Of a stretch of 64,000 nucleotides of DNA, positions 3,187-49,594 are shown in pieces. This stretch comes from a virus. Its lineage: Duplodnaviria > Caudoviricetes. Position numbers and translations under genes: made by a program. Numbering within the stretch: the first letter of the stretch is position 1; each line of letters opens with the position of its first letter. Under the pieces are notes generated by a model. It did no database searches. It was not told where the DNA came from and worked only from the letters and a program-made list of their open reading frames with translations. The DNA lies in IMG/VR virus record IMGVR_UViG_3300037418_002332, one strand, 5' to 3'.

Positions 3187-3383
3187 CACAAGATAATGTA
3201 TTGACTTTCTTTCAATGGTACTTTACAATCGGTATGATAATGCTATTGTTTGGTATCTTCGTCGAAGGAAAAAAGTTGGAGAAGTACGGAACGTTCCGCG
3301 TGTTTGTAACGTTTTGTACATATCTGATGTTTTATCCATTGGCGATCTATTTGAATTGGAAGCACAATGCAAAGCGAAAATGA
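3183..3383 (+). CDS. small membrane protein
   Basis: 66 aa, two hydrophobic segments, ATGA overlap with nadV. Confidence 0.6.
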   Translation: MTQDNVLTFFQWYFTIGMIMLLFGIFVEGKKLEKYGTFRVFVTFCTYLMFYPLAIYLNWKHNAKRK

Positions 3384-45523: not shown

Positions 45524-45981
45524 TTCCCTTGGTGCTTCCTAATCCAATCATGTAAATCTGAGGTTGTGCCGGTGAAAATGGCTTTATCAATGTTCACGTT
45601 TCCGGCACCCTCTGATTTGACTTTGGTGTGGTATCTTTTCTTCTCTGAATAAATTTCCAAAAGTTGTTTGTTAGCATTTAACAGCGTTGTTGACATTTGA
45701 GCCAATGCTGAGAAGTGGCTTGCCTTTTCTGAATCTTGAGCAATCAATGAAAGCTTTTGAACACCATCAGCAATTTCAGTTATGAGGTCTTTCAGTGATT
45801 CACGAATTTCCTCAAAATCATCATTGAAACGGTCATCCATTCCTTCATCTGGATTGAAGACCATATCATAATTTTGCTTAACGGTTTGTAAATTCTTTTG
45901 AGCTTGTGTAACAATGTTATTCGTCTTGTTCACTTGCTTTTGTTCTTCTATTTCGAAGATATCATCTAAATGTTTCGCCAT
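45520..45981 (-). CDS. terminase small subunit (gp16-like)
   Basis: LDDIF, DDF...R..L..LI, HF.AL..M, N.F.G.T.DL pattern; follows gp15. Confidence 0.75.
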   Translation of the reverse strand: MAKHLDDIFEIEEQKQVNKTNNIVTQAQKNLQTVKQNYDMVFNPDEGMDDRFNDDFEEIRESLKDLITEIADGVQKLSLIAQDSEKASHFSALAQMSTTLLNANKQLLEIYSEKKRYHTKVKSEGAGNVNIDKAIFTGTTSDLHDWIRKHQGN

Positions 45982-46847
45982 TACTTGTCAGTTCCTGATA
46001 CTGGGTCATATTTCTTTCCATCATCAAACACTTCAATCGTTTCAATCAAAGCATATGGATCATCACGATTAATTTCACTAACTGGAATTGAATCACCCAA
46101 CACTGTGGTTGGTGTCCCATTTGCAGTCAATCCTGGTTGTACTGTAATTCTGGTATCACGACCAAATTTATCAACTTCATCACCAGTCACTGGACCGTTT
46201 CCTGGAACTGAAATCAAGTCAACAATAGCTCTCTTGATAACACCTTGACTTGAAATTGGACCAAAGAAATAAGCTGCCATTCTGAATTGAAGTGTCCAAT
46301 TGATAAATCTTGGTTCTTCAACACCACCTTGATATTCATCATTTTTGTCGATATTGGTCAATTCAACCATGGAGTCAAATCTCAAATCCATTTCTGGGAT
46401 AACAATAACCGTTGGTGTGAATGAAGGTCTGAAAAATGGAATGATTTGTCCAATTATTTGATGGGCATCATCAGTTGTCTTTGTGTAAATTTGAAGTGTA
46501 AAATCAAAGTTGTAAGGAATTTCAGCATATTGAACTTTCATCACATTTGAATTCAACACTTTGACGTTTTTTTGAATTGGATTGACTGCGCGTTCCCGAG
46601 CAAACTCAATGTTGGTCAATTCATAAGCCATTCTTGGGAGTTGAGTTTGGACTTTGGTGGTGATCGGATTCTTTTCATCCAAAGCAACAAACTTGGATGC
46701 ACCTGCGATTTGACAAGGCACTGGAATAACTTGAAGTTTTGTGCCTGTTGCATCCACTCTATGGATGTATATGTCATTGAACATATTACCAAAGACTGTT
46801 GAATATTTTCGAATTATGTCGTTGTTGAAGAACTCAACTCCAAGCAT
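45981..46847 (-). CDS. tail completion/terminator protein (gp15)
   Basis: FFN..IRK...VFG.MFN.I, LPRMAYE, EIPYNFDF.L.IY, QI..QI.PFF.P, W.L.F...YFFGP. Confidence 0.92.
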   Translation of the reverse strand: MLGVEFFNNDIIRKYSTVFGNMFNDIYIHRVDATGTKLQVIPVPCQIAGASKFVALDEKNPITTKVQTQLPRMAYELTNIEFARERAVNPIQKNVKVLNSNVMKVQYAEIPYNFDFTLQIYTKTTDDAHQIIGQIIPFFRPSFTPTVIVIPEMDLRFDSMVELTNIDKNDEYQGGVEEPRFINWTLQFRMAAYFFGPISSQGVIKRAIVDLISVPGNGPVTGDEVDKFGRDTRITVQPGLTANGTPTTVLGDSIPVSEINRDDPYALIETIEVFDDGKKYDPVSGTDK

Positions 46848-47692
46848 TACCACTTCCCTCTATTGATAAATGGTGATTGATCAGAATAATCAATGAGCAC
46901 TTCACCATTCTTTTGCAACAATTCATTATCAGCTTGACTATCTTTGTCTTCAATCACGTTGTTTTCTTCAACCAACACATCATTGCCTGATTGATCTTCA
47001 ATTGGGTCTCCATCTTCATCATCAAGAGCCTTTGGAAGTTGATCAGTGCTTAACAAAGTATTAAATGCATCAATTGCATCATCACCAGTATCAAATTCTT
47101 CGTTGTTGTAACGGAACAACTCGCACTTCAAATCATATGTAAGTAGAGTGCCAAGCGGATGGAACAAGTTTTCATGTTCTACGAATAGAATTTCAAAAAT
47201 TTTATCAACCATAGGCATGTAAATCAAGTCGCCAGCCTTCGGAAATGATGCTTCAACTGAATAATCACCACCAGGACCGTTTTCTTCAGTCAGCGTTACA
47301 GTTTCATAAGGTGTCCAATCAGGTGATTCAGCAGGTTCAATTGGATTACCATATTCATCCAACACTTTTTCTTCATTTGATTCACGCCAACGACGTCTTG
47401 AAACTGTGAAAGTAATTTGATCACGTTGTTCTTCACCAAACATGGTCATGATTTCATTCTGACCTTCATAGTTATCATATGATTTGACGTAAACTTCAAT
47501 TTCAAACGCATAATTGAATTTGGCAAATGTATCATCACCAAAAAGTGGATCACGTTCGAACTGTTCTCTTGGTATATAACGAATGAACATGCCATTCATT
47601 CTGATTGCTTGAATGATCAAATCCTCAATCAACTTTTGTCGAGGCTTGAAAAAGTAGTTGTTAACGAACGGATTTGGTGATTTTTCAACCAT
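46847..47692 (-). CDS. neck protein (gp14)
   Basis: EDLIIQAI.M.G..I.YIPRE, D.LFG.D, FGEE.RD, P.AGDLIY.P, FEI.FVEHE. Confidence 0.92.
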   Translation of the reverse strand: MVEKSPNPFVNNYFFKPRQKLIEDLIIQAIRMNGMFIRYIPREQFERDPLFGDDTFAKFNYAFEIEVYVKSYDNYEGQNEIMTMFGEEQRDQITFTVSRRRWRESNEEKVLDEYGNPIEPAESPDWTPYETVTLTEENGPGGDYSVEASFPKAGDLIYMPMVDKIFEILFVEHENLFHPLGTLLTYDLKCELFRYNNEEFDTGDDAIDAFNTLLSTDQLPKALDDEDGDPIEDQSGNDVLVEENNVIEDKDSQADNELLQKNGEVLIDYSDQSPFINRGKW

Positions 47693-48444
47693 TAAGCGAT
47701 TTCATCCAATACTGGGAAGTTGCCTGTTGAGATGAGCTTTTCTTCAAGCTTATCAATTTCATCAATAGCTTCTGAATACATCGTTTGAGCATCTAAAGTG
47801 ACACCATTCAACAATGGAATGTTTGAATACAACTTCAGATTTTCTGCCCACTGACGTTTCATCAACGCAGTTGCATATCTCTTCAACCAACGATCTTGCC
47901 AGATAGAAGCATATTGATTAGGGTCAAGGAAAGCTTCAGTTTCAAAGATGATTTTATTACCTAGAACCATGATCTGTTGACCAGCTGCACCGTAAATTTC
48001 AACAGTGTTGGTAATCTTGCTGAAACGAATTGACGGAGTAGTGTTGAATAGGAAATTGATATCCGCCAATCTTGTCATAGCCACGTAATATGGAATGAGT
48101 GTGTAAGAAACATTATGATTCATGTTGTAAAATTCATCGCGGAGATACTGATAACGATCAGACATCCAACTAGAGTCAAAGTAACCAACAGGTGGCAGAA
48201 TGTTGGATACAGTCATGATAGTTTCCGGCAAATGGATTTTACCAGTGTCGATGTCTTCTTGAGTTATGGTATGAATATAGAGTGACTTTTCTGAACCGAG
48301 ATAGTGATAATCTCGATAAAAAGCTAATGCATCGTCTATTCTATCCATTGCTTGTTCATTCTCAACGTTGACTTGGATTACAGGCCATCCTAGACGACGG
48401 AAAATGTATGCTTTGAATTCTGCTTTTGATCTTGGTTCTGCCAT
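47692..48444 (-). CDS. neck protein (gp13)
   Basis: PRSK.EFK.YI.RRLG.PVI.VNV, DRWLKRYATALMKRQW..NL, GVTLD. Confidence 0.93.
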   Translation of the reverse strand: MAEPRSKAEFKAYIFRRLGWPVIQVNVENEQAMDRIDDALAFYRDYHYLGSEKSLYIHTITQEDIDTGKIHLPETIMTVSNILPPVGYFDSSWMSDRYQYLRDEFYNMNHNVSYTLIPYYVAMTRLADINFLFNTTPSIRFSKITNTVEIYGAAGQQIMVLGNKIIFETEAFLDPNQYASIWQDRWLKRYATALMKRQWAENLKLYSNIPLLNGVTLDAQTMYSEAIDEIDKLEEKLISTGNFPVLDEIA

Positions 48445-48522
48445 GGAATTTCCTCTGGTTTATTCATATTTATTCCCTAAAGAAAAACAATCTTCCTTTA
48501 AAAATTTAGCTTTGGATAACTC

Positions 48523-48551
48523 TTGACTTCAAGCGTAGTTAAGCGCAAGCT
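48523..48551 (+). promoter_or_regulatory. host-type sigma70 promoter candidate
   Basis: (C)TTGACT-N17-CAAGCT upstream of the 49-aa ORF. Confidence 0.45.
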
Positions 48552-48586
48552 AATAATGCGAGGGGATTTAGAGGGAGTACCTGAAA

Positions 48587-48736
48587 ATGAAAGCAATATG
48601 CGCTCTGTGCGTAGCCATTTTCATGGCTGCGATTCAACCTCAAGCATCTCGAGCATGCACTGATCAATCCATGTGTGATGGGTTTCTTGGCGGCGGAAAT
48701 AACCAAAACCATAATTCTGCTGGCAATCACAATTAG
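48587..48736 (+). CDS. 49-aa putative secreted peptide (not in ORF track)
   Basis: gagggag RBS; MKAICALCVAIFMAAIQPQASRA signal-like segment followed by CTDQSMCDGFLGGGNNQNHNSAGNHN. Confidence 0.6.
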   Translation: MKAICALCVAIFMAAIQPQASRACTDQSMCDGFLGGGNNQNHNSAGNHN

Positions 48737-48783
48737 TTGAAGATTTGCTTCAAAGGTGAGAGCGGGTTGGGGATCTTTGGAGC

Positions 48784-48830
48784 AAAAAGGTGGTGGCCCA
48801 GGTGTGACCGCGTCGGGCCACCACTTTCTA
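48784..48830. terminator. GC-rich hairpin, probably a bidirectional terminator
   Basis: GTGGTGGCCC / GGGCCACCAC 10-bp stem flanked by AAAAA and TTT. Confidence 0.7.
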
Positions 48831-48841
48831 GAAGAAACCTC

Positions 48842-48870
48842 TTGACTTTATCTAAAATTTTAGGCATAGT
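48842..48870 (+). promoter_or_regulatory. host-type sigma70 promoter
   Basis: (C)TTGACT-N17-CATAGT, placing +1 near 48877. Confidence 0.7.
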
Positions 48871-48876
48871 GGTGTT

Positions 48877-48993
48877 GTTCTGGAGCTTGCCTAGCCTCTC
48901 CCTTCTGTTCCATGGGATGGGTGAGTTCTGGAAACCCACCGCGAGTCCGCCACTCCCCCCTTCGGTTAGGATCGCGGTGGGTTCTTCATTTTT
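48877..48993 (+). ncRNA. candidate small regulatory RNA with two CU-rich-loop hairpins
   Basis: 15-bp stem (6 G-U pairs) 48878-48933 with CCUCUCCCUUCU loop; 12-bp perfect stem 48933-48983 with CCACUCCCCCC loop; U-run 48989-48993; promoter upstream; no RBS-led ORF. Confidence 0.65.
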
Positions 48994-49594
48994 ATGAAGG
49001 CCAATAAGAATTGTTGGTGTAGTCCGTTGGAATTGGACTGGTGGATTTAATTGCTCTCGCGGCAAAAATGCACTTTGTTTCCCATGATGCGGCTGCTTGA
49101 CCGAAAGCAAAGCACGTTGGAGCATCCATCAAATTCAGGCTGTTATCATCAGCGATCCAAACGAAATCTGATGTACCTCCATGCCAACGATAGTTTCCTG
49201 CTGCGGCTCCAGCAGCCATTGCGAACCCTGCTAGAGTCGCTGCTCCGATGATACGAGCCTTGGACTCGTTGTCCATCGCGTAGCTTTTACCGTTGAAAGT
49301 GAACCCTGTTGCGATTCGGCGATCGCGCTCAGCATTCACTTCAGTTGACGTTACAACTTGAGCAACAGTTGACCAAACATATTTTGGAATACCATTGGTA
49401 ACAACAACCGAAACTGATGTTGGAATACGACCAGCTGGAATTGGATCGGCAGAAACAATTTCTTTCAATGTATGCGTAGCGTTTTCCCAACCAGCATATG
49501 CTGGGGATGTTTGATCATTACCAATCGTAAATGATCCACCAGGAAGGACTTCCTTCACGAAACTTGCGTCTGACTTCTTAATAAGTGCTAGCAT
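48992..49594 (-). CDS. tail-fibre-associated protein (DUF4376-like C-terminus)
   Basis: VNAERDRRIATGFTF.G..Y..D..S..RI.GA, WIADDNS...MDA. Confidence 0.7.
   Translation of the reverse strand: MLALIKKSDASFVKEVLPGGSFTIGNDQTSPAYAGWENATHTLKEIVSADPIPAGRIPTSVSVVVTNGIPKYVWSTVAQVVTSTEVNAERDRRIATGFTFNGKSYAMDNESKARIIGAATLAGFAMAAGAAAGNYRWHGGTSDFVWIADDNSLNLMDAPTCFAFGQAAASWETKCIFAARAIKSTSPIPTDYTNNSYWPS

Follow-up and report, generated by a model that had tools for sequence, protein, structure and literature searches.

In the Rhizobiales the trans-acting RNAs AbcR1 and AbcR2 occlude ribosome-binding sites (RBSs) by means of CU-rich single-stranded motifs and have a terminator hairpin at the end; they are chromosomal tandem genes, targeting the mRNAs of ABC transporters. 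The locus considered here is a candidate small RNA (sRNA) gene of a T4-like soil phage, which had originally been compared with these RNAs and with the cuckoo/alpha-r14 family. It lies on the + strand of a 64,000-nt stretch of DNA (the window), which comprises bases 105197-169196 of the 247-kb IMG/VR virus record IMGVR_UViG_3300037418_002332 (estimated to be 97% complete), and it consists of a promoter followed by two hairpins and a U-rich tail. The exposed top of the first hairpin is complementary to the Shine-Dalgarno (SD) region of a distant gene of the same phage, and the reading put forward here, tentatively and with rather more doubt than conviction, is that the unit encodes an sRNA made early in infection, which would cover the SD of the phage open reading frame (ORF) at genome position 68600 with the loop of its hairpin 1, hairpin 2 serving as the terminator and possibly also as a second anti-SD loop.

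The cuckoo family (RSs0680a-d/CcsR and alpha-r14/NfeR1) has adjacent hairpins with CCUCCUCCC loops, the criteria for membership being two to four adjacent hairpins of 24-50 nt, helices of at least 6 bp and linkers of at most 10 nt (PMC4615179). The present unit resembles this family in having two adjoining hairpins with no linker between them, stems of 15 and 12 bp, C/U-rich loops of an anti-SD-like kind and a probable alphaproteobacterial host. However, its hairpins are 54 and 51 nt long, slightly above the family limit of 50; loop 1 (CCUCUCCC) is one C short of CCUCCUCCC, while loop 2 (CCACUCCCC) agrees with it at six of nine positions, the comparison being with the exact motif and without the IUPAC variants used by the authors; and the long specific match described below uses a part of the loop that lies outside the C-rich motif. 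With the exact motif absent and no match to any alpha-r family in Rfam at E values up to 10, whether to alpha-r14 or, in the case of AbcR, to alpha-r15, membership of the cuckoo and AbcR families is not supported.

A loop that pairs with the RBS region of the phage's own mRNA, and blocks its translation, is found in the c4 antisense RNA of P1 and P7 (Rfam C4, RF01695; PMC12197685). Here too a loop is complementary to the RBS region of an own-phage mRNA, in this case as predicted from the sequence. On the other hand c4 is cut out of the operon of its target and serves immunity in temperate phages, whereas the unit described here has an early promoter of its own, lies 85 kb from its target and belongs to a phage that is virulent by appearance; and the C4 model (RF01695) finds no match in the unit. 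The remaining comparison is with the promoter-early stem-loop (PeSL) cassettes, which shuffle ORFans in T4-type phages and close with an SD followed by an ORFan's start codon (PMC2839356, Arbiol et al. 2010). The locus shares with these cassettes a repeated sigma-70-like early promoter, an AT/purine-rich upstream element, an adjacent GC-rich stem-loop, and insertion together with an ORFan in a plastic region, but it differs in that no SD or credible ORF is present downstream of the promoter, the predicted cargo being instead a non-coding structured RNA. As a prediction, then, the unit would be a phage-encoded, RBS-blocking, base-pairing RNA that stands outside every named family.

Promoter and fold of the candidate RNA

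The promoter upstream of the hairpins belongs to a family of early promoters that recurs throughout this phage (coordinates of all features are collected in Table 1). A genome scan yields for this repeated cassette the consensus AGAAGAAA, three variable bases, CTT(T/G)ACTT, 17 nt and TATAATG, while the signature at the sRNA locus reads TAGAAGAAA and then CTTGACTT, including a perfect CTCTTGACTT; the sole departure is in the -10 box, which is CATAGT where the consensus has TATAAT. When a weight matrix built from 12 promoters standing directly before genes (the sRNA site being excluded) was applied to the genome, the sRNA promoter ranked 21st of 494,122 positions; the 31 top sites are all on the + strand, and it is the only one among them to lie within the block of late genes on the - strand. 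As far as sequence goes, such a rank tells far more strongly for a working promoter than a generic match to sigma-70 would, and membership of the early-promoter family therefore leads to a prediction of early transcription that depends upon the host polymerase. The family as a whole has some 25-30 members genome-wide, all on the + strand, with a conserved upstream AGAAGAAA element, and there are conserved bases after the -10 box also (TATAATG..TGTA..AGGTGA). Members within the window are found at 3201, 5461, 7053, 17750, 25048, 25854, 27226 and 34989, and pairs of cassettes have identities of 23-28 nt in common, SD included.

The unit as a whole folds at -52.2 kcal/mol on the + strand (z -4.70, with none of 200 shuffles as good), as against -37.8 kcal/mol (z -1.21) on the - strand, and this asymmetry is entirely attributable to hairpin 1, as hairpin 2 is symmetric. 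The stem of hairpin 1 pairs 48879-48893 with 48918-48932, and exactly six of its 15 pairs are G-U; because these turn into C-A mismatches on the - strand the hairpin is strand-specific, folding by itself at -24.5 kcal/mol on the + strand and at -9.0 kcal/mol on the other. Above the stem there is a 5-nt internal loop (GCCUC), then a weak 4-bp helix (UCCC/GGGA) and finally an 11-nt apical loop, UUCUGUUCCAU. An 8-nt direct repeat, GTTCTGGA, occurs at 48877-48884 and 48925-48932, which is to say at both feet of the hairpin, and its two copies pair with each other by way of G-U pairs.

In hairpin 2 all 12 pairs of the stem (48933-48944 with 48972-48983) are Watson-Crick and none is G-U; the stem carries a partly structured top with a 12-nt loop, and its stability is the same on both strands (-28.4 and -28.8 kcal/mol). 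The tail that follows, CUUCAUUUUUAU, contains nine U among its 12 nt, with C and A breaking the run. A consensus terminator scan did not call hairpin 2 with this tail, partly because the loop exceeds the size that the scan allows. Both loops of the unit contain CUCCC...CUUC, which is the complement of an extended SD of the GGGAG type. Three ORFs overlap the unit (86 and 31 aa on the + strand, 130 aa on the - strand), for none of which was an SD or a match in Pfam or PHROG found.

The anatomy set out in the original prediction, that of a stand-alone sRNA gene on the + strand, is therefore still standing, and is strengthened by the membership of its promoter in the early family: the TTGACT-N17-CATAGT promoter with a start near 48877, the 15-bp stem with six G-U pairs that forms on the + strand only (its ends shifted by about one base), the second, perfect 12-bp stem, the two C/U-rich, anti-SD-like loops and the lack of a credible coding frame all reappeared in the analysis. 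The U-run said to follow the second stem is present too, as a U-rich tail, though an interrupted one that the consensus scan did not call.

Complementarity to a phage ribosome-binding site

A short-word BLAST search of the unit against the phage genome gave a single non-trivial match. Positions 48900-48913, to which the weak helix contributes three bases and the apical loop of hairpin 1 the rest, match genome positions 68575-68588 as a perfect 14-nt reverse complement, and the pairing extends to 17 bp with one bulged U (17 of 18 positions). In the sense strand the complementary site stands 12-25 nt ahead of the start codon (ATG) of an ORF, and it covers the GGAG core of the SD, 8 nt before the AUG, the target sequence reading AAGGGGAG, 8 nt, AUG.

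Two kinds of calculation bear on how unusual such a match is. If the 20 nt of loop 1 are shuffled, a 14-nt complement turns up in any of the phage's 409 translation-initiation regions in one case out of 2000, and anywhere in the genome in ten out of 2000; taking all estimates together, the probability of finding the complementarity by chance is about 0.0005-0.004. In terms of energy, RNAduplex gives -29.7 kcal/mol for the loop-1 region with its target, the mean over the 409 regions being -10.5 kcal/mol (standard deviation 3.6) and the next real gene coming at about -22 kcal/mol; among 82,362 windows from both strands (mean -6.6 kcal/mol, standard deviation 3.3) the target is the best non-self match. 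The cost of opening is put at 1.7-2.9 kcal/mol for the seed in the sRNA and 1.3-3.9 kcal/mol for the target (for the 11-nt apical loop alone it is 0.07 kcal/mol), and the net interaction predicted by the model is of the order of -25 kcal/mol. On these computed figures the sole statistically outstanding target is a gene of the phage, not one of the host.

The third best match genome-wide (-26.1 kcal/mol) falls within the same leader, on the same strand and about 160 nt further upstream (L006:2908-2940, genome 68407-68440), and the chance that one of the next two matches should fall so near is, roughly, 0.002. Part of the loop-1 sequence with which this upstream site pairs (AGCCUCUCCC) is not the part used at the first site, and the upstream site is therefore more than a duplicate of it. 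In the leader, the upstream site coincides in part with a hairpin that resembles a weak terminator (GGGGGAAGGCUUCC, then a U-rich tail).

The ORF that follows the target site encodes a signal peptide and then a low-complexity protein rich in Gly, Asn, Asp and His, a secreted orphan for which no family was found in Pfam or PHROG and no homologues in searches that included one with the N-terminus. The early promoter that scores best in the whole genome lies upstream of it, separated from it by an 88-aa ORF and a leader of 390 nt that is poor in ORFs. This leader has an unremarkable fold (z -1.69), and its matches in Rfam were no more than snoRNA-like chance ones. Directly after the gene there is a further early-type promoter (TTGACT, 17 nt, TAAAAT) at L006:4048-4076 (genome 69547-69575); the start of the next called gene is 1.5 kb past it, and the region seems to be rich in non-coding units. 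A 12-nt identity, ATCTAAAATTTT, links the spacer of the sRNA promoter (48850-48861) with genome 68546-68557, which is 18 nt ahead of the target site in its leader; it is followed by bases that are loosely similar, and may trace a common origin.

A nearer partner was also considered, namely the mRNA of the 49-aa peptide encoded shortly before the sRNA promoter, in an arrangement like that of a type I toxin-antitoxin pair. As a specific partner this candidate was rejected: there are only 6-nt SD/anti-SD matches, and the initiation region of the peptide ranks 22nd of the 409 for loop 1 and 8th for loop 2. A homology of the 49-aa peptide to the 242-aa target product was likewise dismissed, the similarity (E 0.088) being one of composition.

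Table 1 Features of the sRNA locus, its predicted target and the neighbouring genes. Positions are those of the window unless marked otherwise.
Feature	Position	Strand	Basis or remark
Sigma-70-type promoter: TTGACT (48842-47), 17-nt spacer, CATAGT (48865-70)	48842-48870	+	Consensus scan
Upstream promoter element TAGAAGAAA, common to phage early promoters	48829-48837	+	Alignment of 12 early promoters and weight matrix
Predicted transcription start, G48877, 7 nt after -10 box	48877	+	Inferred from promoter geometry
Hairpin 1: 15-bp stem, internal loop, 4-bp helix, 11-nt apical loop	48879-48932	+	Folding
Predicted seed, complementary to L006:3076-3092 (target SD region)	48896-48913	+	Short-word BLAST, duplex prediction
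Hairpin 2: perfect 12-bp stem, putative terminator stem; apical loop ACUCCCCCCUUC (48952-48963)	48933-48983	+	Folding
U-rich tail CUUCAUUUUUAU, overlapping stop codon of convergent DUF4376 gene	48984-48995	+	Sequence
Predicted target ORF, 242 aa, 85 kb from sRNA	genome 68600-69328 = L006:3101-3829	same strand as site	Sequence
Island between gp13 and DUF4376 tail-fibre gene, 547 bp, + strand units	48445-48991		Specific to this lineage
49-aa ORF, first unit of island	48587-48736	+	SD GAGGGAG 8 nt before ATG; signal-peptide-like N-terminus
GC-rich stem-loop, 10 bp, 15-nt loop, resembling PeSL stem-loop	48790-48824		Sequence; compared with PMC2839356
Late-promoter-like (T4-type) motif AATAAATA, about 25 nt upstream of gp13 start	48467-48474	-	Sequence; putative
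gp15, tail-sheath stabiliser	45981-46853	-	T4-type structural gene beside sRNA locus
gp14, neck protein	46847-47692	-	T4-type structural gene beside sRNA locus
gp13	47692-48444	-	T4-type structural gene beside sRNA locus
DUF4376 tail-fibre-type protein, 200 aa, convergent late gene	48992-49594	-	Pfam PF14301, E 2.8e-18; PHROG tail-fibre families

Regulator, cassette or terminator

According to the reading proposed at the outset, the sigma-70 polymerase of the host would transcribe an RNA of about 110-115 nt early, from the phage early promoter, and the transcript would end at hairpin 2 and its U-rich tail. The exposed top of hairpin 1 would then pair with the SD region in the mRNA of ORF 68600-69328, the pairing probably starting as a contact between the loop and single-stranded RNA and spreading from there to 17 bp, so that the loading of ribosomes would be blocked and decay of the mRNA perhaps triggered; the weaker site some 160 nt upstream may help in capturing the mRNA. 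The sRNA gene itself would have come in with a cassette made up of promoter and stem-loop, which took the place of a DUF1353 gene at the junction of two late transcription units. It is possible to go further and to suppose that a mobile early-promoter cassette carries a trans-acting sRNA which silences an early gene of the same phage through both leader sites, while its cuckoo-like loop 2 might reach mRNAs of the host, but in this fuller form the proposal must be called doubtful.

There are clear caveats even for the simpler proposal of an sRNA acting on the ORF at 68600. The sRNA is predicted from DNA sequence, none of the sequencing runs found to contain this DNA being listed as RNA, and the parts from which its transcription is predicted have their weaknesses: the -10 box is a poor one, while the U-tract has interruptions and is set apart from the stem. 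The target is a low-complexity orphan ORF whose start is itself a prediction, and loop 2 has no outstanding target among the phage's translation-initiation regions. Real intergenic DNA is moreover a harsher control than are shuffles, since it gives eight unrelated complements of at least 14 nt to initiation regions per 33.5 kb, and against this empirical background the chance for two 20-nt loops comes to about 0.002-0.004. The complementarity could also go back to an inverted duplication, with no selection for pairing behind it.

It counts against the proposal, too, that no homologue appeared in any scan, which leaves neither covariation nor joint change of sRNA and target to be observed. Rfam at its gathering score, run over the whole window, gave no matches to the unit, and a permissive scan of 48500-49200 (E up to 10) gave chance matches only, to DLEU2_6, mir-943 and Atu_C4; blastn against 50,697 cultured-phage records found no homologue. 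The exact loop patterns are absent from other viral contigs, and the seven matches to them in JGI metagenome contigs were discarded, all being CT-rich chance occurrences without the fold. A covariance model matched only the unit itself in the phage genome, nothing at the loci of 20 relatives, and in five Rhizobiales genomes a chance sequence (E 0.36), with nothing in 151 further ones, although a model made from a single sequence is weak and such blanks do not prove absence. An identical JGI copy and contigs from four runs have no sequence differences at the locus. The element being an orphan and all its copies identical, neither the covariation nor the conservation of hairpin 1 that the original prediction had proposed to check was found. 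One rhizosphere metatranscriptome contains 0.17 of the sampled words of 48520-49000, which is no evidence either way. The candidate is, as a prediction, a good but unproven one, and weaker than candidates that can point to covariation.

A rather unlikely alternative is that the locus is a promoter-terminator cassette of the PeSL type, which insulates the two late units from each other and drives the 49-aa ORF, the RNA being then a by-product and the match either an inverted-duplication relic or chance. The promoter does come from a repeated cassette family, it has a GC-rich stem-loop directly upstream as in the published cassettes (PMC2839356), and the island in which it lies is a lineage-specific insertion in a variable tail-fibre region; hairpin 2 is symmetric in stability and abuts a stop codon on the - strand, while the lack of detectable conservation, the weak -10 box and the imperfect U-tract also speak for a structure of this kind. 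The 12 nt that the promoter spacer and the target leader have in common may point to a joint origin, but taken alone they are not significant (z about 1.3). Moreover, where a PeSL would end in an SD and the start of an ORFan there are here 110 nt without an ORF; hairpin 1, which folds on the + strand only, is unnecessary for termination; and the two sides of the match coincide precisely with the accessible apical loop and with an SD, a second site lying in the same leader. Should the cassette explanation nevertheless be right, the locus would amount to an ordinary promoter-terminator insulator in a variable tail-fibre region.

The two other explanations each start from a part of the structure. 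If loop composition is taken as the guide one arrives at a host-directed anti-SD sRNA, cuckoo-like or AbcR-like, that would act on G-rich RBSs of the host or titrate Hfq. The CUCCC...CUUC in both loops would suit GGGAG-type SDs, two adjacent hairpins with C-rich loops make up the cuckoo layout (PMC4615179), the host is probably of the right clade, and the C-run of loop 2, for want of a phage target, is otherwise unexplained. This explanation is compatible with regulation of the ORF at 68600, but it appears quite improbable in view of the failure of the alpha-r and exact-motif comparisons and of the blank covariance-model searches in the 5 + 151 Rhizobiales genomes; as regards features of the Hfq type, the 3' U-run is interrupted and there is no single-stranded A/U-rich spacer between the hairpins. 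Loop composition and the likely host clade are what the idea is founded upon. If, instead, one starts from position, the hairpins could be a bidirectional terminator and cis-antisense module that stops the - strand tail-fibre operon, the + strand RNA pairing with the 3' ends of read-through transcripts and altering their processing or stability. Hairpin 2 begins 8 nt past the - strand stop codon and is equally stable in both orientations; a better U-tract for the - strand lies past the stem-loop at 48790-48824, any late transcript reading through as far as this tract would include the complete antisense of the sRNA, and gp13 seems to have a late promoter of its own. This is very unlikely to be the whole explanation, however, as hairpin 2 is followed on the - strand by UUUCC only, while hairpin 1 (which barely folds on that strand), the early-type promoter and the distant complementary sites are left unexplained. 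The original prediction had named as its own undoing a structure that merely terminates the - strand gene: hairpin 2 could indeed terminate that gene as well, but the fold of hairpin 1 on the + strand alone is not covered by such a role.

In virulent phages of the T4 type, control of the phage's own genes by a trans-acting, base-pairing RNA has not, to our knowledge, been established. If the sRNA reading is true it would supply a cheaply testable pair, the RNA of 115 nt and, on a single mRNA, its site of 17 nt. RNA regulators would moreover have to be counted among the possible cargo of the mobile promoter cassettes in T4-type phages, which would then spread riboregulators from phage to phage besides ORFans. 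Nearly all of the phage sRNAs characterised so far come from temperate phages and prophages (reviewed in PMC12197685).

Genomic setting and likely host

The island that contains the sRNA gene is made up of two + strand units, the first consisting of the 49-aa ORF and then the stem-loop at 48790-48824, the second of the promoter and then the sRNA. For the 49-aa product, which has two Cys residues and a tail of Asn, His and Gly, no family was found in Pfam or PHROG, and HMMER matched just long repetitive proteins. The putative promoter of this ORF has a good -35 box (CTCTTGACTT) but is without a -10 box at 17 nt, and it ranks 231st of the 494,122 positions on the early-promoter matrix. The stem-loop has its end 17 nt ahead of the -35 box at the sRNA locus; on the + strand UUUCU comes after it, and on the - strand CUUUUUGCU. 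The AATAAATA motif near the start of gp13 also precedes other late genes of the phage, and if it is a real late promoter then gp13 forms a separate late unit. On the far side, beyond the DUF4376 gene, the - strand continues with a sulfotransferase-like gene and more tail-fibre genes.

In nine corresponding loci from the closest relatives found (L003-L005 and L087-L092) the order of genes is DUF4376, sometimes DUF1353, and gp13, with no gap; three of the nine have gp13 identities of 62-64%, and six, several of which are on contigs of 150-260 kb, have DUF4376 identities of 74-76%. DUF1353 lies between DUF4376 and gp13 in most of the relatives compared in this respect (L087-L092, L003 and L004), while L092 has neither DUF1353 nor the island. 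No remnant of DUF1353 was detected in the island, nor any nucleotide similarity to the loci of the relatives. Judged by this comparison, the island is a lineage-specific insertion, its + strand units occupying the place of DUF1353, and replacements are concentrated at the tail-fibre end of the module.

As to the phage itself, its G+C content is about 40% and its DNA occurs in soil and rhizosphere metagenomes. The nearest cultured phages, with gp15 identities of about 35-37%, are the Sinorhizobium phages phiM12, phiM7 and phiN3, Ochrobactrum phage vB_OspM_OC and cyanomyoviruses. ARAGORN found a permuted (two-piece) tmRNA gene with the tag DNDNFVPMAVAA at genome 99768-100205, outside the window, and the named homologues of the DUF4376 protein of the tail-fibre tip are mostly in genomes of Rhizobiales and Rhodobacterales. 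Prophage proteins of Aureimonas, Pseudorhizobium, Shinella and Mesorhizobium come nearest to this tip protein, and Rhizobiales of soil are the candidate hosts. Because of this tmRNA, the taxa of these homologues and the nearest cultured phages, the host is probably alphaproteobacterial, a conclusion that falls short of proof, and the alphaproteobacterial frame of reference originally adopted was therefore a reasonable one. Within the window ARAGORN found no tRNA or tmRNA genes; outside it, at genome 36.5-59.2 kb, there are 33 tRNA genes, including one whose CTA anticodon is suppressor-like and another in which the anticodon loop is odd.

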